A DNA stretch of 39,817 nt, taken from the sequence record MT808983.1; one strand, written 5' to 3'. Position 1 is the stretch's first letter. Each line of letters starts with the position of its first letter. Below, piece after piece: positions 2,567 through 39,064 of this stretch. The DNA is from Escherichia phage TM1. The translations under genes were made by a program, and so were the position numbers. The notes beneath the pieces are model-generated. The model ran no database searches. It worked only from the letters and a program-made list of their open reading frames with translations, and was not told the DNA's origin.

Positions 2567-2590
2567 ACTTAACTATCACTATAGGACTCA
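2567..2590 (+). promoter_or_regulatory. Phage-RNAP promoter (ttaACTATCACTATAGGact) immediately upstream of the RNAP gene
   Basis: Matches the 11-member promoter family of this genome (core ACTATCACTATAGG); predicted +1 G at 2584. Confidence 0.7.
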
Positions 2591-2658
2591 AGGTCTAAGA
2601 CTCCAAGTGAAAGACCAAAGAGACTTTAAGTGAAAGACTAATAACAAGGACTTTAAGT

Positions 2659-5340
2659 ATGAGCGTCATCTCTATTGACAAACACGACTTCTCTGATGTG
2701 TCGAACGCCATTGAGCCGTTTAACCTGCTGGCTGACCACTACGGGCAAGACCTTGCAGTCAAGCAGCTTCAGCTTGAGCATGAGGCATACACTGAAGGCG
2801 AGCGACGTTTCATCAAGAACCTTGAGCGCCAGACCGAGCGCGGTGAGATGGCAGACAATCAGGTCGCCAAGCCTTTGATGCAGACTCTGGTCCCTAAGAT
2901 TGCGCAAGCCGTCAAGGAGTGGCATGAAGGCCCAGACGGGAAGCTGTCAACCTCTCGTCCTAGCGTAGCGTTCACCATGTTGAGCACTGAAGATAAGGCC
3001 GTCAAGGACCGCTCTCTGCGCATCTCCTGTGAGTCTGCTGCGGTTATCATACTGAAGGTCATCCTCTCCAAGCTGGTAAAGCCTGAAGGGATACCGATTA
3101 CACCTATGGCCTCCGCGATAGGTCGCACACTTGAAGATGAGATCCGCTTCGGTCGAATCAGAGACAAGGAGCAGGAGCACTTCAAGAAGGCGATAGCTGA
3201 TAACCTGAACAAGCGAGCTGGGGCATCCTATAAGAAAGCCTACATGCAAGCGGTTGAGACCTCCATGCTGGAGCAAGGTCAACTGGAAGATGCGTGGGGA
3301 ACTTGGAGTCCGACAGAGGCGGTACACGTTGGCATCAAGATGCTTGAGATTGTCATACAGTCTACACAACTGGTCGATATTAAGCGTTATGGTGCTGGCA
3401 ATGCAGCGGCTGATGTTGAGATGGTCCACCTGTCAGACTTCTGGGTCAAGAAGATGGCACAACGTGGGTTCAGCCTTGCGGGTATCGCACCAGTCTATCA
3501 GCCTTGCGTAGTTCCACCTAAGCCGTGGACGGGTGTCGTAGGCGGTGGGTACTGGGCCAAAGGTCGCAGACCGTTACCATTGATTCGCTTAGGGTCTAAG
3601 TCTGCGGTAGCACGTTACGAAGACGTGTACATGCCGGAAGTCTATGACGCTGTGAACATCATCCAGAATACACCTTGGAAAGTTAACAAGAAGGTTCTGG
3701 ACGTGGTGAACATGGTCGAGAAGCTGAACAACACGCCTATTGACGACATCCCTCAGATGGAGCCACTAAAGCCTGAGGACTATGCGGGTGAGACCGATGA
3801 AGAACTGAAGGCATGGAAGAAAGCTGCTGCTGGTATCTATCGACGCGAGAAGGCCAGACAGTCGCGCAGATTGTCACTGAGCTTTATCGTCAACCAAGCG
3901 AACAAGTTCTCTCAGTTCAAGGCCATCTGGTTTCCATACAACATGGATTGGCGAGGTCGTGTCTACGCTGTCCCGATGTTCAACCCTCAGGGTAACGACA
4001 TGCAGAAGGGTCTCCTGACTCTGGCAGTCGGCAAGCCTATTGGTGCTGACGGTTTCAAATGGCTGAAGGTACACGGTGCAAACTGCGCGGGTGTTGATAA
4101 AGTCACCTTCGAGGAGCGAATCAAGTGGGTGGAAGACAATCACGACAACATTATGGCTGCTGCTAAGGCACCGATGGATAGTATTGAGTGGTGGGGCAAG
4201 TTAGACTCTCCGTTCTGCTTCCTTGCGTTCTGCTTCGAGTATGCTGGCGTAATGCACCACGGCCTGTCTTACTCCTGCTCGCTGCCGATAGCGTTCGATG
4301 GGTCCTGCTCTGGTATTCAGCACTTCAGCGCGATGCTTCGTGACCACATCGGTGGACATGCAGTAAACCTAACTCCATCCGGCAAGGTTCAAGACATCTA
4401 CCGCATCGTGTCTGACCGCATCGCGGAGGAACTCAAAGTCCTGCTTGTTAACGGTACGGATAACGAGATGGTGACTCACGAGGACAAGAAAACTGGTGAG
4501 ATTACCGAACGTCTCAAGCTGGGGACACGAGAGCTGGCCCGTCAGTGGCTGACCTACGGTATGTCACGTAAGGTCACTAAGCGTTCGGTCATGACTCTGG
4601 CCTACGGGTCGAAAGAGTATGGCTTCGCAGACCAAGTATACGAGGACATCGTGATGCCAGCGATTGACTCAGGGTCTGGCGCTATGTTCACTGAACCAAG
4701 CCAAGCGTCTCGCTTCATGGCTAAGATGATTTGGGAAGCTGTGAGTGTGACCGTGGTTGCTGCGGTTGACGCGATGAAGTGGCTTCAAGGTGCTGCCAAG
4801 CTGCTGGCTGCTGAGGTGAAGGACAAGAAGACTGGAGAAATCCTGAAGCCTTGCCTTCCGGTACACTGGGTAACACCTGATGGTTTCCCGGTCTGGCAGG
4901 AATACCGCAAGAAGGATACAACCCGTCTGAACCTGATGTTCTTAGGGTCATTCAACCTTCAGCCTACAGTCAACAAAGGCACGAAGAAAGAGCTGGACAA
5001 GCACAAGCAGGAGTCAGGCATTAGCCCGAACTTCGTCCACTCACAAGATGGCAGCCACCTGCGGAAGACTGTAGTCCACACTCATCGCAAGTATGGCGTG
5101 ATGTCATTCGCAGTGATTCACGATAGCTTCGGGACCATCCCGGCTGACGCTGAGTATCTGTTCCGTGGTGTCCGTGAGACGATGGTAGAGACATACCGCG
5201 ACAACGATGTGCTGCTTGACTTCTACGAGCAGTTTGAATACCAGCTTCACGAGAGCCAGCGCGACAAGCTGCCTGAGCTTCCGAAGAAAGGTAAACTAAA
5301 TATCGAAGACATCTTGTCTTCAGACTTTGCATTCGCTTAA
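2659..5340 (+). CDS. gp1: Single-subunit DNA-directed RNA polymerase (T7 gp1 homolog, 893 aa)
   Basis: Collinear similarity to recalled T7 RNAP along the whole length (e.g. PYNMDWRGRVYAVPMFNPQGNDM, DGSCSGIQHFSAMLRD, HDSFGTIPADA, C-terminal SDFAFA). Confidence 0.97.
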   Translation: MSVISIDKHDFSDVSNAIEPFNLLADHYGQDLAVKQLQLEHEAYTEGERRFIKNLERQTERGEMADNQVAKPLMQTLVPKIAQAVKEWHEGPDGKLSTSRPSVAFTMLSTEDKAVKDRSLRISCESAAVIILKVILSKLVKPEGIPITPMASAIGRTLEDEIRFGRIRDKEQEHFKKAIADNLNKRAGASYKKAYMQAVETSMLEQGQLEDAWGTWSPTEAVHVGIKMLEIVIQSTQLVDIKRYGAGNAAADVEMVHLSDFWVKKMAQRGFSLAGIAPVYQPCVVPPKPWTGVVGGGYWAKGRRPLPLIRLGSKSAVARYEDVYMPEVYDAVNIIQNTPWKVNKKVLDVVNMVEKLNNTPIDDIPQMEPLKPEDYAGETDEELKAWKKAAAGIYRREKARQSRRLSLSFIVNQANKFSQFKAIWFPYNMDWRGRVYAVPMFNPQGNDMQKGLLTLAVGKPIGADGFKWLKVHGANCAGVDKVTFEERIKWVEDNHDNIMAAAKAPMDSIEWWGKLDSPFCFLAFCFEYAGVMHHGLSYSCSLPIAFDGSCSGIQHFSAMLRDHIGGHAVNLTPSGKVQDIYRIVSDRIAEELKVLLVNGTDNEMVTHEDKKTGEITERLKLGTRELARQWLTYGMSRKVTKRSVMTLAYGSKEYGFADQVYEDIVMPAIDSGSGAMFTEPSQASRFMAKMIWEAVSVTVVAAVDAMKWLQGAAKLLAAEVKDKKTGEILKPCLPVHWVTPDGFPVWQEYRKKDTTRLNLMFLGSFNLQPTVNKGTKKELDKHKQESGISPNFVHSQDGSHLRKTVVHTHRKYGVMSFAVIHDSFGTIPADAEYLFRGVRETMVETYRDNDVLLDFYEQFEYQLHESQRDKLPELPKKGKLNIEDILSSDFAFA

Positions 5341-5354
5341 CAGGAGAGAGAGTT

Positions 5355-5555
5355 ATGGAATTTGCACACAAGCAGACTGGCGTTAAGGGTGGTACTCAAA
5401 TCGTGACCGTAACAGAACACAACGGCAAGGGTCTGGTGAAGACCACTGTCATCCCTACCGAGATGTCAAAGCAGCTTAACGTCCAGTTCAAGTGGCTGGT
5501 TAAGCAGGTGGAGCAGACGCACGAGCAAGTCCTTAAAGAGGCGGCAACCAAATGA
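5355..5555 (+). CDS. Hypothetical protein (66 aa) between RNAP and gene 1.1
   Basis: ATG with SD AGGAGAGAG; T7 has no gene at this position. Confidence 0.5.
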   Translation: MEFAHKQTGVKGGTQIVTVTEHNGKGLVKTTVIPTEMSKQLNVQFKWLVKQVEQTHEQVLKEAATK

Positions 5556-5629
5556 CATACCTACAGTTACTGGCCCTGTGGCTGGGAGCACTAGCAGTAT
5601 TCACTCTAATCCAACGCAGAAGAGGTTAA
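5552..5629 (+). CDS. Possible small hydrophobic peptide (25 aa, MTYLQLLALWLGALAVFTLIQRRRG)
   Basis: ATG overlaps the upstream stop (ATGA); predicted single transmembrane helix followed by a basic tail; very short, so tentative. Confidence 0.2.
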   Translation: MTYLQLLALWLGALAVFTLIQRRRG

Positions 5630-5633
5630 CCAT

Positions 5634-6113
5634 ATGTTCGGTAAGTCAAAACTTAAGGCACAAATCAAAGAGTTGAGCATGAAGGTGGCATACTTGGAGC
5701 GAGTCGTAGAGGTCCGGGACAAGGACAACGAGCGGCTGAAGGTTAAACTTGCTGAATCAGAGCGTAAGCGCCTAACGCCACCAGCTGCTGTAACTGTCAA
5801 GCGTATGGTAGGCATCAAGTTCAAGGCTCTATTCAACGGTATGTACCAACCGGCTGAGTTCAAGACTGGGCCGGGTAACTGTGGGAAGAACGTTAAGCAC
5901 TTCACCATCTCGAAGACTGAACGCACACTGACCATCCACCAGCACCACATAGACGGGTCTCAGAAAGACTTTGAGTACCGACTGAGCGACATCGACGGTA
6001 GAATCCAGTATGACTATGAGCTGGTTAAGGTATACGGTGAGGAGGCTGAACAGGAACGTATAGTCCAAGCCTTCCGCAACAGACACGATTCGTACCCTAA
6101 ACTATCACTATAG
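5634..6113 (+). CDS. Hypothetical protein (159 aa) with coiled-coil-like N-terminus, accessory gene
   Basis: ATG with SD GAAGAGG; its stop codon TAG lies inside the following phage promoter; no recognised motif. Confidence 0.6.
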   Translation: MFGKSKLKAQIKELSMKVAYLERVVEVRDKDNERLKVKLAESERKRLTPPAAVTVKRMVGIKFKALFNGMYQPAEFKTGPGNCGKNVKHFTISKTERTLTIHQHHIDGSQKDFEYRLSDIDGRIQYDYELVKVYGEEAEQERIVQAFRNRHDSYPKLSL

Positions 6114-6119
6114 GATTAG
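6096..6119 (+). promoter_or_regulatory. Phage-RNAP promoter (taaACTATCACTATAGGatt), phi1.1 position
   Basis: Family consensus; predicted +1 G at 6113; overlaps the 3' end of the upstream ORF. Confidence 0.8.
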
Positions 6120-6160
6120 ACTCAAGGTCATGACTCAAAGTCGTGGCCTTCATGATTAAC
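6118..6160 (+). ncRNA. Conserved leader hairpin, candidate RNase III processing site (R1.1 position)
   Basis: agactcaaggtcatgactcaaagtcgtggccttcatgattaa; one of three copies of a conserved AGACTCAAGGTCAT...GGCCTTTATGATTA element. Confidence 0.5.
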
Positions 6161-6195
6161 CCTAACCTAACGTAAACTACTGGAGATTTAACAAC

Positions 6196-6375
6196 ATGTA
6201 TCAGAACACTATCAACTTCGAGCGCATCCGTGAACGTCAACAGACTGAAGATTATATTCCGAAGGGCCGCAAGCTGAACAAGACCAAGCGTGGCGGTGGT
6301 GTCAAGGGTGCTTTCCGTAACGCTGAAGGCAAAGACTCTCTGGTCAACCAAGAGAAATACTTCGTAGGAGCATAA
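6196..6375 (+). CDS. gp1.1: gp1.1-like small basic protein (59 aa)
   Basis: Contains GRKLNKTKRGGG, matching the GRKLNKTKR motif recalled from T7 gp1.1; position after RNAP and the phi1.1 promoter. Confidence 0.7.
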   Translation: MYQNTINFERIRERQQTEDYIPKGRKLNKTKRGGGVKGAFRNAEGKDSLVNQEKYFVGA

Positions 6376-6378
6376 GCC

Positions 6379-6630
6379 ATGAGTAAACGTTGGTTATTCG
6401 ACGCATCACCGAGCCAGTGGTCATCGTTAGGCCGGACCCACAGAGAGATGAGCGAGGCAGGACTTGAGGTCAGAATGGATGACCTGCCGTGCTCCGGAAA
6501 GACTCTGGTCCAAATCATTGAAGCAGACGATGGGAGGATTCTGGTCACGCGCAAATTTAACGAACACGAAATCTTTAGCTGTGAGCAATGGTGCTTGCAG
6601 CAACTGAATGCTTACAGGAGCTGGAAATAA
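6379..6630 (+). CDS. gp1.2: gp1.2-like protein (83 aa; the T7 homolog is a dGTPase inhibitor)
   Basis: Position between gp1.1 and ligase, similar length and C-terminal WK as recalled for T7 gp1.2; internal similarity is weak. Confidence 0.55.
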   Translation: MSKRWLFDASPSQWSSLGRTHREMSEAGLEVRMDDLPCSGKTLVQIIEADDGRILVTRKFNEHEIFSCEQWCLQQLNAYRSWK

Positions 6631-7670
6631 TGACAACTATCAAGACTAACCCTCACCGCGCTGTAGACTACTCTGAGTCTGGCGTTAAGAAAGCGCTCGA
6701 AGCTGCCGGGTCACTGGAAGCTGAAGTGAAGTATGACGGTGTGCGGTTGAACCTTCCGGTGCTGCGAGAGGGTGAGACTTATTGGTTAAGCCGTGAGTCG
6801 AAACCTCTGCCTGCCTTGGAGTGGATGAACTCTGAGCTAGGTAATGCGTGGACCCAAGCTGACTGGCGATGGTTCCTGCGGCAAGCTGGATACGAAGGTG
6901 TGGGCCTGATGATCGATGGCGAGGTCATGATCAAAGGTGTGGACTTCAACACCTCCTCAGGTCTCATCCGAACGAAGTGGCTCAAGCCTAACAATGAGGA
7001 GGTCGCTGAATGCTATCCGGGCCGTGGCAAGAAGGTCCCGTTCTTGGTCTCCCGGTCACGACTTCAGGTTGTGGTATATGGCGTTGTCGATATGACAACC
7101 ATAGCAGACCCGAAAGCCGAAGGTCCTATCCATAGCGTCACACGCCTGAAGGCCGAAGCCATCGTCCCTCTCCTCCAGAAATACTTCCCGGAAATCGACT
7201 GGGTATTATCTGAGAGTCATACAGTGTATGACCTTGAGTCGCTCAACTCCCTGTACGAAGAGAAGCGTCTGGAAGGACACGAGGGTCTGGTAGTCAAGGA
7301 CCCACTTGGTAAATACAAGCGTGGCAAGAAGTCAGGCATGTGGAAAATGAAGCCTGAGGAGACAATCGACGGGACAGTGTGTGGCCTCGTGTGGGGGACT
7401 CCGGGTAAGGCTAACGAAGGTAAGGTGATTGGCTTTGAGGTGCTGCTTGAGGATGGCATGGTGGTTAATGCTTGTGGTCTGACTGAAGAACAGAAGGATG
7501 AGTTTACGGAAGCCTGTAACACTGATACATATATTCTCGGTGGAATCAATCCATACGAAGGCTGGCAGTGTGAAGTCCTTTTCATGGAGCGGTTCCCTGA
7601 TGGCTCACTCCGTCACCCTAGCTTCAAGTGCTGGCGAGGGACGGAAGACAACCCGACCGTTAAGAGTTAA
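6630..7670 (+). CDS. gp1.3: ATP-dependent DNA ligase (T7 gp1.3 homolog)
   Basis: MTTIKTNPHRAV...EVKYDGVR (KxDG adenylation motif) ...GHEGLVVKDP...KRGKKSGMWKMKPE...SLRHPSF, collinear with T7 ligase; start taken at ATG 6630 (T7-like MxxIKTNP) rather than the upstream alternative start in the ORF track. Confidence 0.92.
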   Translation: MTTIKTNPHRAVDYSESGVKKALEAAGSLEAEVKYDGVRLNLPVLREGETYWLSRESKPLPALEWMNSELGNAWTQADWRWFLRQAGYEGVGLMIDGEVMIKGVDFNTSSGLIRTKWLKPNNEEVAECYPGRGKKVPFLVSRSRLQVVVYGVVDMTTIADPKAEGPIHSVTRLKAEAIVPLLQKYFPEIDWVLSESHTVYDLESLNSLYEEKRLEGHEGLVVKDPLGKYKRGKKSGMWKMKPEETIDGTVCGLVWGTPGKANEGKVIGFEVLLEDGMVVNACGLTEEQKDEFTEACNTDTYILGGINPYEGWQCEVLFMERFPDGSLRHPSFKCWRGTEDNPTVKS

Positions 7671-7678
7671 CTAAACGT

Positions 7679-7720
7679 CAACCCAGTGGTCTTCGGACTG
7701 CTGGGTTTCTTTGCTTTATG
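7679..7720 (+). terminator. Rho-independent terminator, analog of T7 early terminator TE
   Basis: GC-rich hairpin (aacccagtggtcttcggactgctgggtt) followed by a T-rich tract tctttgcttt directly after ligase, where T7 has TE. Confidence 0.7.
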
Positions 7721-7753
7721 CTAGCAAGCTATCGTCTGGTCAACCAGCCTGAC

Positions 7754-7777
7754 CCTAAGCTATCACTATAGGACAAC
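7754..7777 (+). promoter_or_regulatory. Phage-RNAP promoter (taagCTATCACTATAGGaca)
   Basis: Family consensus with one upstream substitution; predicted +1 G at 7771. Confidence 0.7.
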
Positions 7778-7803
7778 CATAACTTCGACCTAAGGAGGCC
7801 GAC

Positions 7804-8392: not shown

Positions 8393-8470
8393 GTGGTGCC
8401 TGGAGATGTACGAGAAGACTCTCAACCCGGACTACATTACGTTATACAACCAATGGAAGGAGCGTGGTTT

Positions 8471-8629
8471 ATGACTGAGGTTGAGAAGAAATACATCGTG
8501 GAGCTTGAGGGTCGCGTTCAGTCCTTCGAGGTTCCGGTGTACGCAAAGTCTCTTGAAGAGGCTGCCCTGAAGTCCCAAGAGTATGAGGACGCTGGGTTTG
8601 TGGTCGGACGGATTCGTCCTGAGACCTAA
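8471..8629 (+). CDS. gp2: gp2-like inhibitor of host RNA polymerase (52 aa)
   Basis: [33 protein letters not shown] parallels T7 Gp2 ([34 protein letters not shown]); start placed at ATG 8471 with SD AGGAGCG rather than the upstream alternative start. Confidence 0.75.
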
Positions 8630-8648
8630 ACTATCACTGTAGGACAGA
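8625..8648 (+). promoter_or_regulatory. Phage-RNAP promoter variant (taaACTATCACTgTAGGaca)
   Basis: Family consensus with A to G at -3; precedes the SSB gene. Confidence 0.6.
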
Positions 8649-11173: not shown

Positions 11174-11197
11174 TAAATTCTAAAGGAGAACAACTCA

Positions 11198-11413
11198 ATG
11201 ATTAAACTTATCGAATTTCTTGGTCGTCTGGTGGTGCGTGGTTATCGTCGTGCTGCGGTACTGGAACGAAAGGTAGAAAAGAAGAATGCTGACGGTGCGA
11301 CTGATGCTGCTGCTCTGGCTGACAAGCTGACCATCGCGTCACTGGAAGCTGGCATGAAGGCACGTCAAGCTGACACCAAAGCTGACCAGTTGGCTCAGTT
11401 CTTCAAAGCCTAA
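11198..11413 (+). CDS. Small alanine-rich protein (71 aa), unknown function
   Basis: Strong SD AAAGGAGAA; its stop codon TAA lies inside the next promoter. Confidence 0.55.
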   Translation: MIKLIEFLGRLVVRGYRRAAVLERKVEKKNADGATDAAALADKLTIASLEAGMKARQADTKADQLAQFFKA

Positions 11414-11431
11414 ACTATCACCTTAGGGATG
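11408..11431 (+). promoter_or_regulatory. Phage-RNAP promoter variant (taaACTATCACcTtAGGGat)
   Basis: Two substitutions in the -4/-3 region; upstream of the tRNA-like element and the primase-helicase gene; probably weaker. Confidence 0.45.
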
Positions 11432-11476
11432 GGACCATGAGTCCTTTCCCTTTGTTCGCATTTGTGATTAAGAAAT

Positions 11477-11555
11477 GTCTCCATAGCTCAAACGGTAGAG
11501 CGGCGGGTCATGATGGCCTATTGCGATTAGGGTTCGAATCCCCGTGGAGACGCCA
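11477..11555 (+). tRNA. tRNA-like element (possible degenerate tRNA, candidate anticodon CAT; anticodon arm ambiguous)
   Basis: Perfect 7-bp acceptor stem (gtctcca/tggagac), T8, D-arm gctc-aaacggta-gagc with GG, T-loop GGTTCGAATCC, discriminator G and encoded CCA; but 26 nt between the D- and T-arms with imperfect anticodon stem pairing. Confidence 0.4.
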
Positions 11556-11566
11556 ATAAGGAGTGA

Positions 11567-13270
<1,704 letters not shown>

Positions 13271-16770: not shown

Positions 16771-17636
16771 CTTCGAATAAGAAGATAGCTATGGTGCTGG
16801 ATGGTGACTATCTGGTCTTCTCTTCTATGGCTGCTGCTGAGGACGAGACAGATTGGGGCGATGATATTTATACCCTTATCTGCGATCATGCCAAGGCTCG
16901 TCGTATCCTTGAGAACACCATCGCTGAAATCGTTAAGAAGCGCAAGGCGTGGAAAGACGCTAAGATTGTGATGTGCTTTACTGACGATAACAACTGGCGT
17001 AAGGACGTTCTGCATACCTATAAGGCCAACCGTAAAGGTTCTCGCAAGCCTGTAGGTTACAAGAAGTTCGTAGCCGAAGTGATGGCTGACCCACGGTTCA
17101 ACAGCTTCCTACGTCCTACGCTTGAGGGCGATGACTGTATGGGTATCATCGGGACCCGACCTCAGATTGTTGGCTGTGACCATGCGGTTCTGGTGTCCTG
17201 TGACAAGGACTTCAAGACAATCCCGAACTGTGAGTTCTACTGGTTGACCACTGGTGAAATCCTGAGTCATACTACTGCCGAGGCAGACTACTGGCACATG
17301 GAGCAGACCATCAAGGGTGACCCTACAGATGGCTATGGTGGCATTCCGGGGATGGGTGAGGACACCACTCGTGCGTTCCTTGACGAGCCGTACTACTTCG
17401 TGCAGGAGAGCCGTGAGCTTAAGACTGGCAAGAACAAAGGCCAGATTAAGACTGAGTGGAAGAAGTATCCGAAGCGTGAAGACATGACGCTGTGGGACTG
17501 CATGGTTACACTGGCTGCGAAGGCTGGCATGACCGAGGAGGAACTTCTGGTCCAAGCTCAGGTCGCTCGTATATGTCGAGCCTCCGACTATGACCCTAGG
17601 TCCAAGGAGGTCATCCTGTGGACACCATCCATGTAA
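16767..17636 (+). CDS. gp6: 5'-3' exonuclease (T7 gp6 homolog)
   Basis: CDHAKARRILE, KANRK, PVGY, LEGDDCMGII, SCDKDFKTIPNC, HMEQTIKGDPTDGY, LWDCM...AKAGMTEEEL, collinear with T7 gp6; start taken at ATG 16767 (SD AGGAGG). Confidence 0.93.
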   Translation: MTSNKKIAMVLDGDYLVFSSMAAAEDETDWGDDIYTLICDHAKARRILENTIAEIVKKRKAWKDAKIVMCFTDDNNWRKDVLHTYKANRKGSRKPVGYKKFVAEVMADPRFNSFLRPTLEGDDCMGIIGTRPQIVGCDHAVLVSCDKDFKTIPNCEFYWLTTGEILSHTTAEADYWHMEQTIKGDPTDGYGGIPGMGEDTTRAFLDEPYYFVQESRELKTGKNKGQIKTEWKKYPKREDMTLWDCMVTLAAKAGMTEEELLVQAQVARICRASDYDPRSKEVILWTPSM

Positions 17637-17762: not shown

Positions 17763-17786
17763 ACTAAACTATCACTATAGGGACTT
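17763..17786 (+). promoter_or_regulatory. Phage-RNAP promoter (taaACTATCACTATAGGGac), phi6.5 position
   Basis: Family consensus; predicted +1 G at 17780. Confidence 0.8.
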
Positions 17787-17846
17787 TAGGACCTAAGATA
17801 TGACTATAAGATAGACTTTAGTCTTAACTTAAAGAGGAGATTCAAG

Positions 17847-19019: not shown

Positions 19020-20588
19020 ATGGCTGAACGTGAAGGGTTCGCTGCTGAAGGCGCGAAGGCAGTTTATGATAGACTGAAGAACGGTAGACAGCCATATGAG
19101 ACACGCGCTCAGAACTGCGCTGCTGTCACTATCCCGTCACTGTTTCCTAAGGAGTCAGACAACTCGTCTACGGAATACGTGACGCCGTGGCAAGCTGTAG
19201 GTGCTCGCTGTTTGAACAACTTGGCTGCAAAGCTGATGCTGGCATTATTCCCTCAGTCACCGTGGATGCGACTTACAGTCTCCGAATATGAGGCCAAGAC
19301 CTTGAGTCAGGACTCAGAGGCTGCTGCTCGTGTTGACGAAGGTCTGGCTATGGTCGAGCGTGTGTTGATGGCCTACATGGAGACTAACAGTTTCCGTGTG
19401 CCATTGTTCGAAGCTCTGAAGCAGCTTATCGTCTCCGGTAACTGTCTGCTCTACATTCCAGAGCCTGAACAGGGAACCTACAGTCCTATGCGAATGTACC
19501 GCTTAGTGTCCTACGTTGTTCAACGTGATGCTTTCGGTAATATCTTGCAGATTGTAACTCTCGACAAGGTAGCGTTTAGTGCTCTACCGGAAGACGTTAA
19601 GTCCCAACTCAACGCAGAAGACTATGAGCCTGACACCGAGCTGGAAGTGTATACGCACATCTACCGTCAGGACGACGAGTATCTGCGCTACGAGGAGGTG
19701 GAAGGAATTGAGGTAGCAGGGACCGAGGGTTCTTACCCACTGACTGCCTGTCCGTACATCCCGGTGCGAATGGTTCGACTGGATGGTGAAGACTATGGTC
19801 GTTCTTACTGCGAGGAGTATCTGGGAGACCTGAACTCGCTGGAGACGATTACAGAAGCTATCACCAAAATGGCTAAGGTAGCCTCCAAGGTGGTGGGCCT
19901 CGTTAACCCGAACGGTATCACGCAACCTCGTCGTCTGAACAAGGCGGCTACAGGTGAGTTCGTGGCTGGTCGCGTTGAGGACATCAACTTCCTGCAACTG
20001 ACGAAAGGTCAGGACTTTACGATTGCCAAGTCGGTGGCTGATGCTATCGAGCAACGTTTAGGCTGGGCCTTCCTTCTTAATAGTGCTGTTCAGCGTAATG
20101 CCGAGCGAGTCACTGCTGAAGAGATTCGTTATGTTGCTGGCGAACTGGAGGCGACCTTAGGTGGCGTGTACTCAGTACAATCCCAAGAGCTTCAGCTACC
20201 TATCGTCCGTGTACTGATGAACCAGCTTCAGTCTGCTGGCATGATTCCTGACCTTCCGAAAGAAGCGGTAGAGCCTACGGTCTCCACAGGTCTTGAAGCG
20301 TTAGGTCGTGGTCAGGACTTGGAGAAGCTGACTCAGGCAGTCAACATGATGACAGGTCTACAGCCTCTGCAACAGGACCCGGACATTAACTTGCCTACCC
20401 TGAAGCTGCGACTGCTGAATGCCTTAGGCATTGATACTGCGGGTCTTCTGCTGACTCAGGACGAGAAGATTCAGCGCATGGCTGAGCAGTCGTCTCAACA
20501 GGCAGTTGTCAAAGGTGCTAGTGCTGCTGGTGCTAACATGGGCGCTGCTGTAGGTCAGGGAGCTGGTGAGGACATGGCTCAAGCCTAA
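19020..20588 (+). CDS. gp8: Head-to-tail connector / portal protein (T7 gp8 homolog, 522 aa)
   Basis: Position, size and acidic C-terminus as in T7 gp8; SD AAGGAGG. Confidence 0.9.
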   Translation: MAEREGFAAEGAKAVYDRLKNGRQPYETRAQNCAAVTIPSLFPKESDNSSTEYVTPWQAVGARCLNNLAAKLMLALFPQSPWMRLTVSEYEAKTLSQDSEAAARVDEGLAMVERVLMAYMETNSFRVPLFEALKQLIVSGNCLLYIPEPEQGTYSPMRMYRLVSYVVQRDAFGNILQIVTLDKVAFSALPEDVKSQLNAEDYEPDTELEVYTHIYRQDDEYLRYEEVEGIEVAGTEGSYPLTACPYIPVRMVRLDGEDYGRSYCEEYLGDLNSLETITEAITKMAKVASKVVGLVNPNGITQPRRLNKAATGEFVAGRVEDINFLQLTKGQDFTIAKSVADAIEQRLGWAFLLNSAVQRNAERVTAEEIRYVAGELEATLGGVYSVQSQELQLPIVRVLMNQLQSAGMIPDLPKEAVEPTVSTGLEALGRGQDLEKLTQAVNMMTGLQPLQQDPDINLPTLKLRLLNALGIDTAGLLLTQDEKIQRMAEQSSQQAVVKGASAAGANMGAAVGQGAGEDMAQA

Positions 20589-20607
20589 ACTATCACTATA
20601 GGAACAA
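20584..20607 (+). promoter_or_regulatory. Phage-RNAP promoter (taaACTATCACTATAGGaac), phi9 position
   Basis: Family consensus; the portal stop codon TAA lies at promoter positions -17 to -15. Confidence 0.8.
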
Positions 20608-21563: not shown

Positions 21564-21587
21564 ACTAAACTATCACTATAGGGAGAC
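21564..21587 (+). promoter_or_regulatory. Phage-RNAP promoter (taaACTATCACTATAGGGAGACC), phi10 position
   Basis: Longest match to the T7 class III consensus downstream region (TATAGGGAGACC); precedes the major capsid gene. Confidence 0.9.
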
Positions 21588-22865: not shown

Positions 22866-22908
22866 TGAAACCCCTTGGGTGCCTTCGGGTGCTTGAGGGG
22901 TTTTTTGC
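22866..22908 (+). terminator. Late terminator, analog of T7 Tphi
   Basis: aaccccttgggtgccttcgggtgcttgaggggttttttg; close resemblance to T7 Tphi (AACCCCTTGGGGCCTCTAAACGGGTCTTGAGGGGTTTTTTG). Confidence 0.85.
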
Positions 22909-22927
22909 TTAAAGTGAGAGGAGACTT

Positions 22928-26111: not shown

Positions 26112-26135
26112 ACCTTAACTATCACTATAGGGACT
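26112..26135 (+). promoter_or_regulatory. Phage-RNAP promoter (ttaACTATCACTATAGGGac), phi13 position
   Basis: Family consensus; predicted +1 G at 26129. Confidence 0.8.
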
Positions 26136-32500: not shown

Positions 32501-33403
32501 AAGCGTCGGTTCGATGACCGCTGGCTTAAGACCGCTGGTATCTCCGAAGAGCAGTGGAAGGGCATTAAGTCATTAATCCGTGAGTCAGTGACTCGTGGTC
32601 CAGACGGGAAGTATACCATCAAGGATAAGAAGGCGTTCAGTCAGGACCCAAGGGCTATGGACCTGTGGCGTATGGGTGACACCATCGCTGACGAAACGTT
32701 ACTCCGTCCTCATAAGCTGTCCAACATGGACGCCAAGGCTTATAGTCCCCTCGCTAAGACTGTCCTTCAGTTTAAGAACTTCGTCATCAAGTCCATCAAC
32801 GGGCGAACCATGCGAACCTTCTACAACGCCACGAAGAACAACCGAGCGATGGACGCTGCACTGTCTACTGTGATGTCTATGGGTCTGGCTGGTATCTACT
32901 ACATGGCTCAGGCGCACGTCAAGGCTTACGCTATGCAGGACGGTCGAGACAGAGATTACCTCAAGCAAGCTCTGGACCCGACGATGATTGGCTATGCGGC
33001 TCTGTCCCGTAGCTCACATCTGGGTGGCCCACTTGGGGTCGCTAACATTCTGGGCGGCATCGCTGGGTATGAGGACACTAAGATGCTCCGCTCGTCTATC
33101 CTCCCTCGTTCACCTACAGAGAAGCCTGAACGTGCCATCTCGTATGGTGCGGCTACAAGTGACCCTGTGATGAATGTCGTCGGTAACTTCTTGGAGCAGG
33201 TTCCAGCTTTCGGCTATGCTGCTAACGTTGGTGCTTCGGCTTACAACTTGGCTGGCTACCTCAAGGCTGATACTCGTGTCAACGAGCGAGACTACATGAC
33301 CGGGATGTATAACACGTTCCGTGAACTGGTCCCGAACGACCCGATTACCCAGAAGTTGCTGCTTGGAACGTTTGAGGAGCATGGTATCCACATCAAGGAC
33401 TAA
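29516..33403 (+). CDS. gp16: Internal virion (ejection) protein D (T7 gp16 homolog, 1295 aa)
   Basis: Middle and C-terminal regions collinear with T7 gp16 (FGFGAATEAEVKNSMVGVAIRAG, KGTYVPHVY, AYGISHTEQF, NNSFLEARNLFDSD, TNYLLDAGRQG, AMDLWRMGD...LRPHK); the N-terminal about 120 aa diverge. Confidence 0.92.
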   Translation: MATRGIRNNNPGNIRVSKDQWEGMTGDDGAFVTFDSPESGVRALGKNLLSYGRQGYDSIEKIINRWAPPNENDTQAYINSVVAATGIPATQSLDLSNPDTLSSLAQAISFHETGSRYDPEVYQKGVARALNGISPKTPPVSANVFDSLTEGLKAKPKVALGENLPTAAGLNIEGQAPEAPNESFGEMFYKATGETMQEREDRSTWFGFGAATEAEVKNSMVGVAIRAGQTEDSLDVIGDVFNPTRWNNHKWSREELDQIRNAGVLPQYYGVITGGSPQNLTELINLALENQKLDAEKAKAGTGAQLAAGVIGAGVDPLTYVPIAGQVGKGGKLVNKMFTVAAQSGALAGVSEMSRTSVAGGDAHVAEAILGGALFGGGMTAIADGLGRALGRNTNEFAGPATRLEARETARNVDGQDLSRLPIQEGEQTFSHQGVKFADVPNEPGSVRLEDGSILIGENPLNPKTRKVFDEVIEPERAAAGVNLGGLTEIGLKLLRSENPEIRGVAADLVRSPTGMQSGATGKIGTTASDVFERLRAVDHRFYNDIDDAVREALKDPYFQTAFWRDSGAFRQDIYQRVSMAIEDGSGNLKAELTPGELKVYDLLKNQFDAKREMMENPSMFGRPDAQSIFPGSRFKGTYVPHVYSNQMKELYIKELGSPEALQEAIKKSWLTSYASRPEVKKRVDEALLEADPTLTPEGLAAAVDKYANDKAYGISHTEQFERSSVMEENINGLVGLENNSFLEARNLFDSDMSIVLPNGQTFSVNNLREWDMDKIVPAYNRRVNGDIAIMAGTGKTTKDMKDLVETMMNKAGDDGKLKGEVSTLRDTLKILTGRARRDGADDAALNTVLRTMTDLSFFAKNAYMGVQNLTEIGGMLARGNVRAMLHGVPIFRDLAFRNKKVGASEIKDLHNVIFGKELDDSIRPSKQDVIDRLRSYSDLGRGTATALGTAKYYTGELAVRSPLTKVLNGTTNYLLDAGRQGFLSDIVEHSLTGSKRRFDDRWLKTAGISEEQWKGIKSLIRESVTRGPDGKYTIKDKKAFSQDPRAMDLWRMGDTIADETLLRPHKLSNMDAKAYSPLAKTVLQFKNFVIKSINGRTMRTFYNATKNNRAMDAALSTVMSMGLAGIYYMAQAHVKAYAMQDGRDRDYLKQALDPTMIGYAALSRSSHLGGPLGVANILGGIAGYEDTKMLRSSILPRSPTEKPERAISYGAATSDPVMNVVGNFLEQVPAFGYAANVGASAYNLAGYLKADTRVNERDYMTGMYNTFRELVPNDPITQKLLLGTFEEHGIHIKD

Positions 33404-33422
33404 ACTATCACTATAGGAAACT
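33399..33422 (+). promoter_or_regulatory. Phage-RNAP promoter (taaACTATCACTATAGGaaa), phi17 position
   Basis: Family consensus; the gp16 stop codon TAA lies at -17 to -15. Confidence 0.8.
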
Positions 33423-33468
33423 GGAGGCGCTACCATAGGTCTCCCTTTAATTCATAACAGGAGGCATA

Positions 33469-35772
33469 ATGTCCACGATTACACAATTCCCTTCAGGAAA
33501 CACTCAGTACAGGATTGAGTTCGACTACCTAGCCAGAACGTTTGTTGTTGTTACGCTGGTGAATAGCTCTAACCCTACCCTGAACCGTGTACTGGAAGTT
33601 GGTCGAGATTACCGATTCCTTAATCCAACGATGATTGAGATGTTGGTTGACCAATCAGGTTTCGACATCGTTCGTATTCACCGTCAGACTGGAACTGACT
33701 TAGTGGTAGACTTCAGGAATGGCTCAGTGTTGACAGCTAGTGACCTGACCAATGCAGAGCTTCAGGCTATCCATATTGCAGAAGAAGGTCGAGACCAAAC
33801 TGTTGACTTAGCGAAGGAATATGCCGATGCTGCTGGTAGCTCTGCTGGCAACGCTAAGGATAGCGAGGACGAAGCACGACGACTCGCTGCGAGTATCAAG
33901 GCAGCTGGTCTAATTGGCTATATTACCCGTCGCTCCTTCGAGAAAGGCTTCAACGTTACAACATGGAACGAGGTCCTGCTATGGGAAGAGGATGGTGGTT
34001 ATTACCGCTGGGATGGTACGCTACCTAAAGAAGTTCCTGCTGGTTCAACCCCTTCGACAACTGGTGGCGTTGGTCTGGGTGCATGGGTGAGTGTTGGTGA
34101 CGCCTCTTTGCGTTCAAATCTTATTAGTGACAATTCAACTAATGGAGATGCACTGATAACCGTCAAGCAGCCATTTGCTAATTCCACGCCAAGAACGCAG
34201 CATGATAAAAACTCGGACATCATAAATATCCGTGATTTTGGTGCTGTTGGTGACTGGGACCCAGTCACAGACACCGGAACTGACAGCACACAAGCACTTA
34301 TTAACGCGGTTAATGCCGCCGTTTCGTTAGGAGGGGCTGAAATTGTTGTCCCTGAGGGGGTGTTCTGTACTACAAAGCCGTGGTATATACCAAGCGGCAT
34401 CGTTGTCAGAGGTAGTGGGTATAATTCTGTTATTTACAATCATCAGGTTTCTGGTTCAGTTTTCCCGCAAACTAACTGCATTCACGTTGGATATAGCACC
34501 GAGTGGGGAAACAGCGGTGAGCCAATGCCGACGGCCCCTGATGCAAAAATGGCTGAAATTCTGGCAAATAATTTCAGTAACATTACAACAAGGAATTCTC
34601 GTGTAACTAATATCCGCGTAATGAATAAGGGGTTTGGTCTTGGTATTTGGTTCATGAATGCTATGGATTGCTCTTGCGACAATATATGGGCTACTAATAC
34701 TACCACACCAATTAACATAGCCAATGATAACCCCTCGGCAGAAATGGCGTGCAAAAATATATCCGTTGATAATATATTTCAAGATGACGGTACGTTAGGC
34801 GAATGGTACGACCTGGCTTTCTTAGGTTCAGCGCTGGACTGTTCTTTATCTCGTCTATACAATAACCCGAACACAAAAAGTAAATTGGCAGAAATGATTG
34901 CTGTCAACGGTGCTCGTCGTTGCAAACTGTCAAAACTATCCCTTTGCGGTAATGAGGACGGTGTGGACCTGCAAATCGCCACCGGGGTGCTTATTTCTGG
35001 TTCATCTACAGGGAACTCTGTAACTAACTCAACATTCTCTAAGATGTCCAATGGGGTGAGTATCACCGGCACTGGCGGCAACACAGTAAAAGATTGTCGA
35101 GGCGAAAACATTTACACGACAGTATATCTTAACTCACCGAAGAACAAGATTTCCGGATTATCTGGTATTGATGTTGTTAACGACATTAGAGGTAATGTAG
35201 ACGCAATCAAAAATGACATAAATAATTGTAATATAAATTCCGTTAATATTTTCGATGTAAACCCTCCAGCTATGTATAATAGATTCAGAGATAACTCAAA
35301 AGATGATTCTATTCTTTTTAATAACTACAATAGCTATGCTGGGCTTCGTGCGAGAAAGATAGCAATGTTCCCCGCCGACGCTGCCATGCTCGCGTCGGAT
35401 AGAGAAGCAACGACAAATAACCTTGCGCGCATAACCAGAAATTCTAACGGAATATTTTCGTTATATTACAAAATACCTAATAACGTTAAGCAATTAACTA
35501 ATGTTACAGTTTACGGATACGGCGCACAATCCGGTGAAGCTGTAGACATAAGCATTGTTGGCATTGACTCCGATAACAACATAAATGGATTCCCAACATT
35601 TCAGTCACTAGGCACAAAAACTACAACTTCCACCGCCGATTTTGCTTTTGTATTCGGACCAACTAACCCTTTTTATGCTGCGGGTAGTTATTATGTGAAA
35701 GTAACGGTGACAATAGGTAATACTGCGACACAAATAAGGAGTGTTATGCTTGAATGTCTGTGTGATGACTAA
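33469..35772 (+). CDS. gp17: Tail fibre / tailspike (gp17 homolog, 767 aa) with T7-like N-terminal adaptor and a predicted beta-helix depolymerase-like C-terminal domain
   Basis: N-terminus (FDYLARTFVVVTL...DLVVDFRNGSVLTASDL...IHIAEEGRD) parallels the T7 gp17 tail-attachment domain; from about residue 240, INIRDFGAVGDWD...TDDT...ALINAVNAA is a pectate-lyase-3/beta-helix-type start followed by N/S/T-rich repeats; the DNA turns AT-rich from about 34100. Confidence 0.9.
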   Translation: MSTITQFPSGNTQYRIEFDYLARTFVVVTLVNSSNPTLNRVLEVGRDYRFLNPTMIEMLVDQSGFDIVRIHRQTGTDLVVDFRNGSVLTASDLTNAELQAIHIAEEGRDQTVDLAKEYADAAGSSAGNAKDSEDEARRLAASIKAAGLIGYITRRSFEKGFNVTTWNEVLLWEEDGGYYRWDGTLPKEVPAGSTPSTTGGVGLGAWVSVGDASLRSNLISDNSTNGDALITVKQPFANSTPRTQHDKNSDIINIRDFGAVGDWDPVTDTGTDSTQALINAVNAAVSLGGAEIVVPEGVFCTTKPWYIPSGIVVRGSGYNSVIYNHQVSGSVFPQTNCIHVGYSTEWGNSGEPMPTAPDAKMAEILANNFSNITTRNSRVTNIRVMNKGFGLGIWFMNAMDCSCDNIWATNTTTPINIANDNPSAEMACKNISVDNIFQDDGTLGEWYDLAFLGSALDCSLSRLYNNPNTKSKLAEMIAVNGARRCKLSKLSLCGNEDGVDLQIATGVLISGSSTGNSVTNSTFSKMSNGVSITGTGGNTVKDCRGENIYTTVYLNSPKNKISGLSGIDVVNDIRGNVDAIKNDINNCNINSVNIFDVNPPAMYNRFRDNSKDDSILFNNYNSYAGLRARKIAMFPADAAMLASDREATTNNLARITRNSNGIFSLYYKIPNNVKQLTNVTVYGYGAQSGEAVDISIVGIDSDNNINGFPTFQSLGTKTTTSTADFAFVFGPTNPFYAAGSYYVKVTVTIGNTATQIRSVMLECLCDD

Positions 35773-35834
35773 AGCAGACTAACGTATGGTAACAACTTTG
35801 GGTCACGGACGACCCGCTTTAAACTGGAGGTTTT

Positions 35835-36029
35835 ATGATTGAGTTAGACTTCAAGAATGAGGTCCTTAAAGCCTCTCCTATCGTCGGGACCGCTGCGGCT
35901 GATGGTGCCAGTCGGTTCTTCTTCGGACTCACACTGAACGAATGGTTCTACGTTGCAGCTATCGCGTACACCGTTGTCCAGATTGGTGTGCTGGTCTACA
36001 AAACGATTAAAGGAGGCGGTAAAACATGA
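35835..36029 (+). CDS. gp17.5: Class II holin (T7 gp17.5 homolog, 64 aa)
   Basis: FFGLTLNEWFYVAAIAYTVVQIG matches T7 holin (FFGLSLNEWFYVAAIAYTVVQIG). Confidence 0.9.
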   Translation: MIELDFKNEVLKASPIVGTAAADGASRFFFGLTLNEWFYVAAIAYTVVQIGVLVYKTIKGGGKT

Positions 36030-36289
36030 CGCAGATGGACTTAGAGAAGTTCCTCTTGATGCTGGATACTGAACGTGCTCGACTCATGCTGCAAGACCTG
36101 CGGGATGACTCTAAGCGTTCACCTCAGCTCTACAACGCCATTGAGAAGCTACTGGCTCGTCACAACTTTGTGTTAAGCAAGGTGTCTGTGGACGAGAAGA
36201 CGCTCGCTGATATGGAGGCCCTGAACGCAGAGTACGATAAGGTGCTTTCAGAGACTGAGGATAATGACACCGGTTATGGTATTCAATAA
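36026..36289 (+). CDS. gp18: Terminase small subunit (T7 gp18 homolog, 87 aa)
   Basis: LMLDTERA...SKRSPQLYNAIEKLLARHNF parallels T7 gp18 (EMLDTAMA...RRSPQLYNAINKLLDRHKF). Confidence 0.85.
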   Translation: MTQMDLEKFLLMLDTERARLMLQDLRDDSKRSPQLYNAIEKLLARHNFVLSKVSVDEKTLADMEALNAEYDKVLSETEDNDTGYGIQ

Positions 36290-36290
36290 G

Positions 36291-36345
36291 TGTTAGACTC
36301 AAGGTCATTACTATATGTAGTGGCCTTTATGGTTAACACTAAGGA
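36291..36345 (+). ncRNA. Conserved leader hairpin, candidate RNase III site (R18.5 position)
   Basis: tgttagactcaaggtcattactatatgtagtggcctttatggttaacac; third copy of the conserved element. Confidence 0.5.
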
Positions 36346-36351
36346 GGTTAC

Positions 36352-36753
36352 ATGAAAGATTCATACATAAGTGGCGGTTACTGGAAGGTTACTCGTAATG
36401 GTAAGGTTCATGGAGTTCATAGATTACTATGGGAGGAAGCCTACGGTCCTATCCCAGATGGTTACGTCATAGACCACATTGATAGGAATCCTATGAATAA
36501 CGAACTGTCAAACCTTAGGTGCATACCTAAAGGCGCAAACAAGGCTAACACGGTATCCTCTAGGGAACTGCCTAAAGGCGTATACTCTAGGTTTGCTAAA
36601 CGTCAAGGTGTAACTGTGTACTATGGTGACATTAGGATGGGAGGTAAGAAAGAAACTCATGCGCCTACTGAGAATCTGAAGGAAGTCGTGGAATGGGCTA
36701 AGTCAACTCATAGCAGAATGCTAAAGGAGACATATGGTATTTCAAATGTTTAA
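36352..36753 (+). CDS. HNH homing endonuclease (133 aa) inserted between gene 18 and the spanin genes
   Basis: VHRLLWEEAYGPIPDGYVIDHIDRNPMNNELSNLRCIPKGAN (H-N-H/N motif); SD AAGGAGG; locally AT-rich. Confidence 0.85.
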   Translation: MKDSYISGGYWKVTRNGKVHGVHRLLWEEAYGPIPDGYVIDHIDRNPMNNELSNLRCIPKGANKANTVSSRELPKGVYSRFAKRQGVTVYYGDIRMGGKKETHAPTENLKEVVEWAKSTHSRMLKETYGISNV

Positions 36754-37186
36754 GAGAGCGGCTCCGTGGTTACTTGCAGCAGTGATGTTTGCTGGTGGCT
36801 ACCACACCGCTAACAGTAAGTGAGAGGCTAAGGTAAATGCAGAATACACCTCGAATCTTAAGGCATCGGAAGATACAAGGCTTGCTGTCCAAGCTGAAGT
36901 CAACAAAGTGTCCAAACGTTTTCAGGACGAAATGTCCTCGCTGGAAGGCAGCACTGATAGGATTATTGCTGACCTTCAGTCTGACAATAAGCGGTTGCGC
37001 ATCCGAGTCAAACCAACGAGTGGAACCACGCAAAGTGACGGTCGATGCGTCATTGATGATTTCGCCGAACTTGACGAACGAGATGCTAAACGTCTTATCG
37101 CCATCGGACTGAAAGGGGACAAGTGGATTAAGGCCCTTCAGGACACTGTGAGAGCCTTGCAGCAAGATAAGGAGGTGAAGCATTGA
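36746..37186 (+). pseudogene. gp18.5: Rz-like i-spanin (T7 gp18.5 homolog) interrupted by an in-frame TGA at 36821-36823
   Basis: N-terminal 25 codons (MFKRAAPWLLAAVMFAGGYHTANSK, TM anchor) then TGA, then the same frame continues EAKVNAEY...SSLEGSTDRIIADLQSDNKRLRIRVK...DERDAKRLIA...KWIKALQDTV, collinear with T7 gp18.5 on both sides of the stop. Confidence 0.6.
36837..37112 (+). CDS. gp18.7: Rz1-like o-spanin lipoprotein (T7 gp18.7 homolog), embedded in the +1 frame of the i-spanin gene
   Basis: PRWKAALIGLLLTFSLTISGCASE (signal peptide with lipobox ISGC) ...MISPNLTNEMLNV parallels T7 gp18.7 (PRWKGALIGLFLICVATISGCASE...MVEPNLTTEMLNV). Confidence 0.8.
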   Translation: MQNTPRILRHRKIQGLLSKLKSTKCPNVFRTKCPRWKAALIGLLLTFSLTISGCASESNQRVEPRKVTVDASLMISPNLTNEMLNVLSPSD

Positions 37187-38946
37187 GTAAAGACTTAGTG
37201 GCGCGTCAGGCGCTAATGACTGCACGTATGAAGGCAGACTTCGTGTTCTTCCTGTTCGTCCTGTGGAAAGCTCTGTCACTCCCAGTCCCGACTCGCTGTC
37301 AGATTGACATGGCGAAGAAACTATCGGCTGGGGACAACAGGCGTTTCATCCTACAGGCGTTCCGTGGTATCGGGAAGTCCTTCATTACGTGTGCCTTCGT
37401 GGTCTGGAAACTATGGAACAACCCAGACTTGAAGTTCATGATTGTGTCGGCCTCAAAGGAACGAGCCGATGCTAACTCCATCTTCATCAAGCGAATCATC
37501 GACCTCATGCCTCAGCTTCAGGAACTCAAACCTAAGCAGGGCCAACGAGATGCGGTTATCAGCTTCGACGTTGGACCAGCCAAACCAGACCACTCACCTT
37601 CGGTTAAGTCCGTTGGTATCACTGGTCAGTTGACTGGTAGTCGTGCTGACATACTGATTGCCGATGACGTGGAGGTTCCGAACAACTCAGCGACTCAGGC
37701 TGCTCGTGACCGTCTGTCAGAGCTTGTGAAAGAGTTCGACGCTATCCTGAAGCCTGGAGGTACAATCATCTATCTGGGTACTCCTCAGAACGAGATGACC
37801 CTGTATCGTGAGCTGGAAGGTCGTGGGTACACAACTACTATCTGGCCAGCTCGTTATCCACGCGATAAGAAGGACTGGCAGTCCTACGGCGACCGTCTGG
37901 CTCCTATGCTTCAAGCAGAGCTGGAAGAGGACCCTGAGTCCTTCTACTGGCGTCCTACTGATGAAGTACGCTTCGATGATACTGACCTGAAGGAACGTGA
38001 GCTGTCCTATGGTAAAGCTGGCTTCGCTCTCCAGTTCATGCTTAACCCGAACCTGAGTGATGCCGAGAAGTACCCTCTGAAGCTACGTGACCTTATCGTA
38101 GCAGACTTGGACCCAGCGTCAAGCCCAATGGTCTACCAATGGTTGCCGAACCCTCAGAACAAGCGTGAGGACGTTCCTAACGTTGGACTCATGGGTGACT
38201 CATACCACACGTATCAGACTGTAGGTTCTGCCTTCAGTTCGTACACCCAGAAGATTCTGGTCATTGACCCTAGTGGTCGTGGTAAGGATGAAACTGGTTA
38301 TGCGGTACTGTATCAGCTCAACGGCTACATCTTCGCTATGGAAGTTGGCGGTATGCGGGGTGGTTATGAAGACTCTACGCTTGAAGCCTTGGCTAAGATT
38401 GGTCGTAAGTGGAAGGTCAACGAATACGTCATTGAGGGTAACTTCGGTGATGGTATGTACCTTGAGCTATTCAAGCCTGTAGCGGCCCGTATCCATCCTG
38501 CGGCTGTAACTGAAGTGAAGAGTAAGGGTCAGAAAGAACTCCGCATCTGTGACGTTCTGGAGCCTATCATGGGGTCTCACCGACTTATCGTCAACGCTGC
38601 TGCTATCGTCCAAGACTACCAGACAGCCTCTGACAAGGATGGTGTTCGTAACCCTATCTACTCTCTCTTCTATCAGATGACCCGTATCTCTCGTGAACGT
38701 GGAGCCTTGGCACACGATGACCGACTTGATGCGCTGGCTATCGGTGTACAGTTCTTCGTTGAGTCTATGGCTAAGGATGCCAACAAAGGAGAACGTGAAG
38801 TCACTGAGGAGTGGCTGGAGGAACAGATGGAGAACCCACGGAAAGGCTTCGAGTCCATCCACACTGAGTTCTGGGACAATGGGGTCCGGGTAACTCACGA
38901 TACGGACGACGAGATGGGTCTAGGGTCCTACGTTACGTTCCACTAG
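37183..38946 (+). CDS. gp19: Terminase large subunit (T7 gp19 homolog, 587 aa)
   Basis: [29 protein letters not shown]...[20 protein letters not shown]...[17 protein letters not shown]...[11 protein letters not shown], collinear with T7 gp19; apparent TTG start 7 nt after AGGAGG, overlapping the spanin stop. Confidence 0.96.
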
Positions 38947-39040
38947 CTGAATGAATAACTATGGGTGAAAGCTGCATGAATACGCAGTTAGTAACCTATA
39001 GTTACTACCAGTCTAACCTACTGTTTTACAAGGAGTTTGG

Positions 39041-39064
39041 ACTTAACTATCACTATAGGGAAGA
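39041..39064 (+). promoter_or_regulatory. Phage-RNAP promoter (ttaACTATCACTATAGGGaag) near the right end (phiOR position)
   Basis: Family consensus; predicted +1 G at 39058; T7 has a promoter at the equivalent right-end position. Confidence 0.8.

Follow-up and report, generated by a model that had tools for sequence, protein, structure and literature searches.

In this study, we undertook an analysis of the complete linear genome of Escherichia phage TM1 (MT808983.1; 39,817 bp, all of which is referred to here as the window), centered on eleven copies of a short repeat and on the RNA polymerase (RNAP) encoded by gene 1. Our results indicate that the eleven repeats are, almost certainly, the promoters of a K1F-like phage and are served by its own T7-like RNAP. 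The promoter core and the polymerase loop that would recognize it are identical to those of the annotated and characterized phages K1F, EcoDS1 and Ro45lw, and therefore the system is one that is already known. This differs from a preliminary description of the same DNA, in which the promoters and polymerase were taken as a distinct family; the mechanism proposed there is right, but it is established knowledge.

For the promoter search, +1 was set at the first G of the GG and each promoter was taken as 23 bp (-17 to +6), with the chance expectation obtained from 100 dinucleotide-preserving shuffles. The core ACTATCACTATAGG (-12 to +2) had exactly 11 matches with up to two mismatches, all on the plus strand, whereas the shuffled sequences gave 0.30 matches on average and never more than 2, so that none of them (0/100) reached 11. 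Eight of the 11 sites were exact, those at 7759 (GCTATC) and 8630 (CTGTAGG) had one mismatch each, and the site at 11414 (CACCTTAGG) had two. With a 23-bp weight matrix the eleven sites reached 30.9-37.4 bits, and the highest score elsewhere on either strand was 14.9 bits. The excess over chance, the restriction to one strand and the clean gap in matrix scores all support the identification of these sites as promoters of the gene 1 RNAP.

The consensus of the 23-bp promoters is (A/C)CT(A/T)AACTATCACTATAGG(G/A)A, and positions -16 (C), -15 (T), -13 (A), -11 to -5, -2, -1, +1 and +2 are invariant. Positions -15 to -13 are TAA in eight sites and TTA in three, and the stop codons of five upstream genes lie within a promoter, as TAA at -15 to -13 in the case of gp2, gp3.7, gp8 and gp16 and as TAG at -2 to +1 in the case of gp1.05 (Table 1). 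The segment from -12 to -8, ACTAT in the window, is CGACT in T7, ACCCT in T3, GGGCA or GGACA in K11 and GGTGA in SP6 according to their annotated reference records. The sites that had been pointed out in the preliminary description were all recovered, as were their usual TAA, the overlapping stop codons and the departure of ACTAT from the T7, T3, K11 and SP6 promoters; two of the start sites, listed as 11425 and 26129, were each off by one.

A search for weaker promoters, with three mismatches and with the weight matrix, produced only three candidates, at 2015 (+1 = 2027), at 17587 (+1 = 17599) and with +1 = 17809. They were rejected as functional promoters because each is mismatched either at -7 or within the initiation core and scores no more than 14.9 bits. 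Neither search detected a phiOL-like site at the left end, and the window consequently has 11 promoters without phiOL, as compared to 17 promoters in T7. The candidate at 17809 is a degenerate promoter-like copy, CCTAAGATATGACTATAAGATAG (17792-17814, 14.9 bits), situated in the leader of gene 6.5, 29 nucleotides (nt) past phi6.5. K1F and EcoDS1 have it with 23/23 positions identical, which is noteworthy, but with G at -7 and A at +1 it is probably inactive.

The product of gene 1 occupies a position after the early genes that is syntenic with that in K1F-type genomes. It matched the T7 RNAP structure 1aro_P over its entire length (phmmer, E = 0, 1275 bits, residues 1-893 against 1-883), and it is 98.8% identical to K1F gp1 (893 amino acids, no gaps), 98.7% to the EcoDS1 polymerase, 94% to that of Ro45lw and 63.7% to that of T7. 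In many Kayfunavirus records (K1F, EcoDS1, ST31 and others) the RefSeq name for this T7-like product is "N4-like RNA polymerase", a misleading label for a protein that can be aligned with T7 RNAP over its entire length.

Alignments by HMMER and by MAFFT (with T7, T3, K11, SP6, K1F and EcoDS1) were both ungapped across the specificity loop, which is VWQEYRKKDTTRLNLMFLGSFNLQPTVNKG in the window versus VWQEYKKPIQTRLNLMFLGQFRLQPTINTN in T7. Within it the stretch TRLNLMFLGSFNLQPTV (substituted stretch RLNLMFLGSFNLQPT) pairs gaplessly with T7 TRLNLMFLGQFRLQPTI. Three T7 residues are replaced, Q754 by S (window residue 764), R756 by N (766) and I761 by V (771), with codons at 4948, 4954 and 4969, respectively, whereas R746, N748 and Q758 are unchanged. 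Over T7 735-775 the loop is identical to those of K1F and EcoDS1, and the 62-residue loop region is identical in 135 phage-collection records and 95-99% identical in 69 more. A second element with a counterpart in T7, the AT-rich recognition loop near the N-terminus, is two residues longer in the window and lacks the RGK(R) motif; by analogy, this loop would read -17 to -13.

Megablast placed the window in the genus Kayfunavirus (K1F-like, Studiervirinae), with the top records having ~94% identity across ~90% of the first 25 kb, and the phage is therefore a new isolate or species-level variant in a genus that is very well sampled. Its eleven 23-mers correspond one to one, in synteny, to sites in K1F (DQ111067) and EcoDS1 (EU734172), from which they differ at only 4 and 1 of 253 bp, respectively. 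Ten of the eleven K1F promoters differ from those of the window by at most one position in 23 bp, and phiOR differs at 3/23 positions, all downstream of +3; -12 to -8 is ACTAT in both phages. Even the departures from consensus are common to the three phages: phi1.6 has G at -12, phi2.5 has G at -3, and the site 5' of gene 4 reads CACCTTAGG. In the GenBank record of EcoDS1 all eleven sites are annotated as phage promoters in matching gene context, in the order two unnamed, phi1.6, phi2.5, unnamed before gene 4, phi6.5, phi9, unnamed before gene 10, phi13, phi17 and phiOR, together with the terminator TE, the late terminator and host promoters. The eleven amino acid differences between K1F gp1 and the window RNAP all lie outside the loop.

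Published experiments have examined this promoter and polymerase pair both in a T7 background and with a native enzyme. After predicting promoters for subfamilies of phage RNAP, Temme et al. (2012; PMC3458549) placed the K1F hairpin (T7 Q744-I761) into T7 RNAP and replaced -12 to -7 of the T7 promoter by the K1F consensus, and the T7(K1F) graft gave 17-fold induction and was reported to be orthogonal. A later tabulation lists the T7(K1F) variant as 754S, 756N and 761V with the cognate segment ACTAT; K1F counts there as one of nine natural clusters of specificity, for which residues 748, 756 and 758 are the defining positions (PMC11880802). The S/N/V set is the same as that in the window loop. 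The promoter P_K1F itself is presumably TAATAACTATCACTATAGGGAGA, of which the ACTAT segment is confirmed (PMC11880802). The native RNAP of the Kayfunavirus Ro45lw was purified by Takatsuki et al. (2025; PMC12272871), whose in vitro work gave ACTTAACTATCACTATAGGGA as the minimal promoter and, through sequencing, G as +1. That promoter is the same as -17 to +4 of the window phiOR, and the Ro45lw enzyme has the window residues at T7 positions 746, 748, 754, 756, 758 and 761; its specificity loop differs by M750L and its N-terminal loop by L96S. In addition, a 2026 genome note reported CTWAACTATCACTATAGG repeats of another Kayfunavirus as its promoters.

These comparisons establish that the window core is identical to the promoter of characterized polymerases, those being the native Ro45lw enzyme and the K1F graft. 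They also uphold two parts of the preliminary description, namely its alignment of the loop, with N in place of R756 and S in place of Q754, and its view that such substitutions are consistent with altered recognition, as published work paired T7 RNAP 754S/756N/761V with ACTAT. In synthetic biology the K1F promoter and polymerase already serve as a standard orthogonal pair, and a native enzyme of the genus has been characterized for in vitro transcription. The practical value of the present analysis is therefore the correct annotation in this genome of eleven phage promoters, TE and T-phi, and it adds little for discovery.

In the scheme that we favor, host RNAP would transcribe the early genes, gene 1 among them, after which the gene 1 RNAP would initiate at the first G of the GG in the eleven 23-bp promoters. 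The promoters are all directed rightward, precede the middle and late gene blocks and often overlap the preceding stop codon. Discrimination against T7 and T3 promoters would occur mainly at -12 to -8, where ACTAT would be read in the major groove by the hairpin of the specificity loop. The loss of R756, which in T7 forms a hydrogen bond to the template G at -9, fits the replacement of C by A at -9. A second putative recognition module has been altered as well, comprising the longer N-terminal AT-rich loop without RGK(R) and the -17 to -13 element with its invariant C at -16. By analogy with the characterized relatives, the window enzyme is expected to initiate at the +1 G of its promoters and to discriminate against those of T7 and T3.

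As to which residue of the window enzyme reads which base, we infer this with the T7 contacts as background: the literature gives hydrogen bonds of R756 with G-9 (stable), Q758 with A-8 and R746 with G-7, and lists R746, N748, R756 and Q758 as the base-contacting residues (PMC11880802). A contribution of Q754S to recognition is unproven, since Q754 is outside those four residues.

No observation contradicts the favored scheme, but a few points qualify it. The orthogonality of the grafted polymerase set was judged to be limited (PMC11880802), and the K1F loop was weak as a "sigma fragment" in a split polymerase, where it needed M750R for activity (Segall-Shapiro et al. 2014). Furthermore, N756 is combined with C at -9 in K11. 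The base at -9 is therefore not dictated by residue 756 alone, and a code in which N756 specifies A at -9 was rejected for that reason. N748 is also unchanged although -11 and -10 differ from T7, being common to T7 (G-11, A-10) and K1F (C-11, T-10). Because N748 is kept while -11/-10 go from GA to CT, R756N alone cannot account for the changes from -12 to -10.

Potentially, the specificity loop is only part of the recognition system, with the N-terminal AT-rich loop also needed to read (A/C)CT(A/T)A at -17 to -13 and with Q754S and R756N necessary but not solely responsible. We give this reading, which complements the promoter assignment, serious but less than even credence. In its favor, 11/11 sites have C at -16 and T at -15, whereas T7 has TAATA, and the window loop has two additional residues and no RGK(R). 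The minimal promoter of Ro45lw likewise keeps the full 5' ACTTA (PMC12272871), and the directed evolution of T7 RNAP to T3 specificity required R96L and K98R in the AT-rich loop (literature). On the other hand, the K1F hairpin in a T7 backbone was active on a promoter retaining the T7 -17 to -13, and the upstream element is therefore not required for the recognition of ACTAT as such.

A further comparison comes from GW1 and EcpYZU01, which are both members of Kayfunavirus and are similar to the window in genome layout and in promoter number and placement. Their specificity loop is RLDLMFLGTFRLQPT, with D748, T754 and R756, and each has at least 11 promoters with the T3-type core ACCCTCACTATAGG (ACCCT) in the layout seen in the window. 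The EcpYZU01 RNAP is ~85% identical to that of the window. Therefore, a switch in promoter specificity has taken place inside one genus. Within this lineage the base at -9 is C where residue 756 is R and A where it is N, and D748 occurs with C-10 and N748 with T-10. The N-terminal loop of GW1 and EcpYZU01 is RGKP or RGRP and their -17 to -13 is AT-rich (ATTAA, AATAA), so that the loop and the upstream element co-vary, although just two lineages show this co-variation and common ancestry could be the reason for it. More tentatively still, the K1F lineage may have altered both modules together, with full natural discrimination needing both and with the reading by N748 depending on context (C-11/T-10 here, G-11/A-10 in T7). 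We found no experimental dissection of the N-terminal loop in the K1F type in the literature. The K1F type (N748/N756, ACTAT) and the T3 type (D748/R756, ACCCT), with the AT-rich loop changed in parallel, represent close natural backgrounds that could be used for dissecting specificity.

We consider it extremely improbable that the window has a new, uncharacterized specificity class unlike that of every characterized phage RNAP. The pair does differ from T7, T3, K11 and SP6, and it belongs neither to the T7 class (CGACT with N748/R756/Q758) nor to the T3 class (ACCCT with D748/R756), as ACTAT in the window goes with N748 and N756. Both T7 and T3 have R756 and Q754 in place of the window N756 and S754, and -17 to -13 of the window is not purely AT-rich, whereas the likenesses to these phages are in the RNAP fold and length class, the 23-bp promoter with a conserved -7 to +1 CACTATAG, the class II/III layout, TE and T-phi. 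However, the identity of core and loop to those of K1F, EcoDS1 and Ro45lw, the tests of the pair in vivo as a graft and in vitro with the native enzyme, the presence of the loop in more than 200 deposited phage genomes and the same CTWAACTATCACTATAGG promoter repeats in the 2026 paper all argue against such a class. It is just as hard to credit that the repeats are some other signal, for recombination, packaging or RNA processing, as the conserved hairpins after several sites are nothing specific, whereas the T7-group initiation core CACTATAGG is present, all of the sites are oriented with the genes, their places match T7 phi1.6, 2.5, 6.5, 9, 10, 13, 17 and OR, and a purified Kayfunavirus RNAP transcribes from an identical 21-mer (PMC12272871).

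Table 1. Promoters, polymerase segments and other elements of the window (+1, predicted start site; ORF, open reading frame)
Feature	Coordinates	Strand	Remarks
Gene 1 promoter, +1 = 2584	2567..2589	+	ACTTAACTATCACTATAGGACTC; exact core; 23-mer identical in K1F and EcoDS1; EcoDS1 label "phi"
gp1.05/gp1.1 junction promoter, +1 = 6113	6096..6118	+	TAG stop of ORF 5634..6113 (gp1.05) at -2..+1
phi1.6, +1 = 7771	7754..7776	+	G at -12 (1 mismatch), variant common to K1F, EcoDS1 and Ro45lw; shortly after TE; EcoDS1 label phi1.6
phi2.5, +1 = 8642	8625..8647	+	G at -3; gp2 TAA stop (ORF ending 8629) at -15..-13
Promoter 5' of gene 4, +1 = 11426	11409..11431	+	Weakest match (CACCTTAGGG); gp3.7 TAA (ORF ending 11413) at -15..-13; pseudo-tRNA downstream
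phi6.5, +1 = 17780	17763..17785	+	Start GGGA
phi9, +1 = 20601	20584..20606	+	gp8 TAA stop (ORF ending 20588) at -15..-13
phi10, capsid gene, +1 = 21581	21564..21586	+	ACTAAACTATCACTATAGGGAGA
phi13, +1 = 26130	26113..26135	+	CCTTAACTATCACTATAGGGACT; only -17 differs from promoter tested in vitro with Ro45lw RNAP
phi17, +1 = 33416	33399..33421	+	gp16 TAA stop (ORF ending 33403) at -15..-13
phiOR near right end, +1 = 39058	39041..39063	+	ACTTAACTATCACTATAGGGAAG; -17..+4 as Ro45lw minimal promoter
Gene 1, T7-like single-subunit RNAP, 893 aa	2659..5340	+	Full-length match to T7 RNAP structures
Specificity-loop coding segment	4903..4998	+	Window residues 749-780 = T7 739-770; limits from literature
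AT-rich recognition loop counterpart	2935..2967	+	Window residues 93-103 DGKLSTSRPSV versus T7 93-101 KAKRGKRPT; from alignment
Terminator TE, host RNAP	7680..7717 (hairpin 7680-7707)	+	12-bp stem then T-run, 3' of ligase gene; EcoDS1 TE equivalently placed
T-phi counterpart, terminator-like hairpin and T-run	22882..22909 (hairpin 22882-22899)	+	3' of capsid gene; EcoDS1 terminator at equivalent site
tRNA-like element (pseudo-tRNA)	11477-11555	+	ARAGORN; Rfam tRNA 36.5 bits versus gathering score 29

The pseudo-tRNA lies in an 88-nt insertion (11473-11560), relative to K1F and EcoDS1, between the gene 4 promoter and gene 4 (ATG at 11570). The acceptor, D and T arms are in place and CCA is encoded, but the position of the anticodon arm is taken by a 5-bp stem with a 5-nt loop, which is skipped by the Rfam alignment. 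A role as a decoding tRNA-Met was rejected on two grounds: the arm is not canonical, and ARAGORN calls a different "anticodon" in different variants (Met, Thr, Ser or "Stop"). The cloverleaf is maintained, with 93.5% of cells staying paired and clean compensatory changes of U2-A74 to C-G and G55-C65 to A-U; a register shift in Kc166A inflates part of the counts for the acceptor stem. The element is present in ~35 Kayfunavirus records, where its annotation is inconsistent, one paper refers to it as a "pseudo-tRNA", and no copy or source of it was found in 5,426 E. coli genomes. As to its role, we can only guess at a processing signal for RNase P/Z or a decoy.

The window has direct terminal repeats of 179 bp (1-179 and 39639-39817), and its large ORFs are all on the plus strand in the order of the T7 genes. 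EcoDS1 has a similar layout, with terminal repeats of 178 bp and the TE and T-phi terminators, and ~93% nucleotide identity to the window over 88% of the first 25 kb, but lacks the pseudo-tRNA. The window combines that element with an EcoDS1-type tail fiber, whereas K1F has an endosialidase and no pseudo-tRNA. The tail fiber or spike protein gp17 (33469-35772, plus strand, 767 amino acids) is 95% identical to EcoDS1 gp17, and since it is of this type and unlike the K1F endosialidase, the capsule specificity for the host is probably not K1.

Two further sets of repeats were identified, all on the plus strand. Three related 50-nt repeats built around AAGGTCA...TGGCCTT form stable hairpins at 1947-2004, 6113-6170 and 36290-36347 (z = -5.6, -3.3 and -4.5, respectively), one of which begins at +1 of the 6113 promoter, and these are similar to the sites at which RNase III processes T7 and T3 transcripts. 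In addition, two early genes (ORFs 776..1057 and 1124..1459) have in common a leader of ~50 nt (CCTGACTGATAGTCACTAACAAC...; 738-787 and 1086-1135) that is 74% identical between them and may be a duplicated translation-initiation or processing region.

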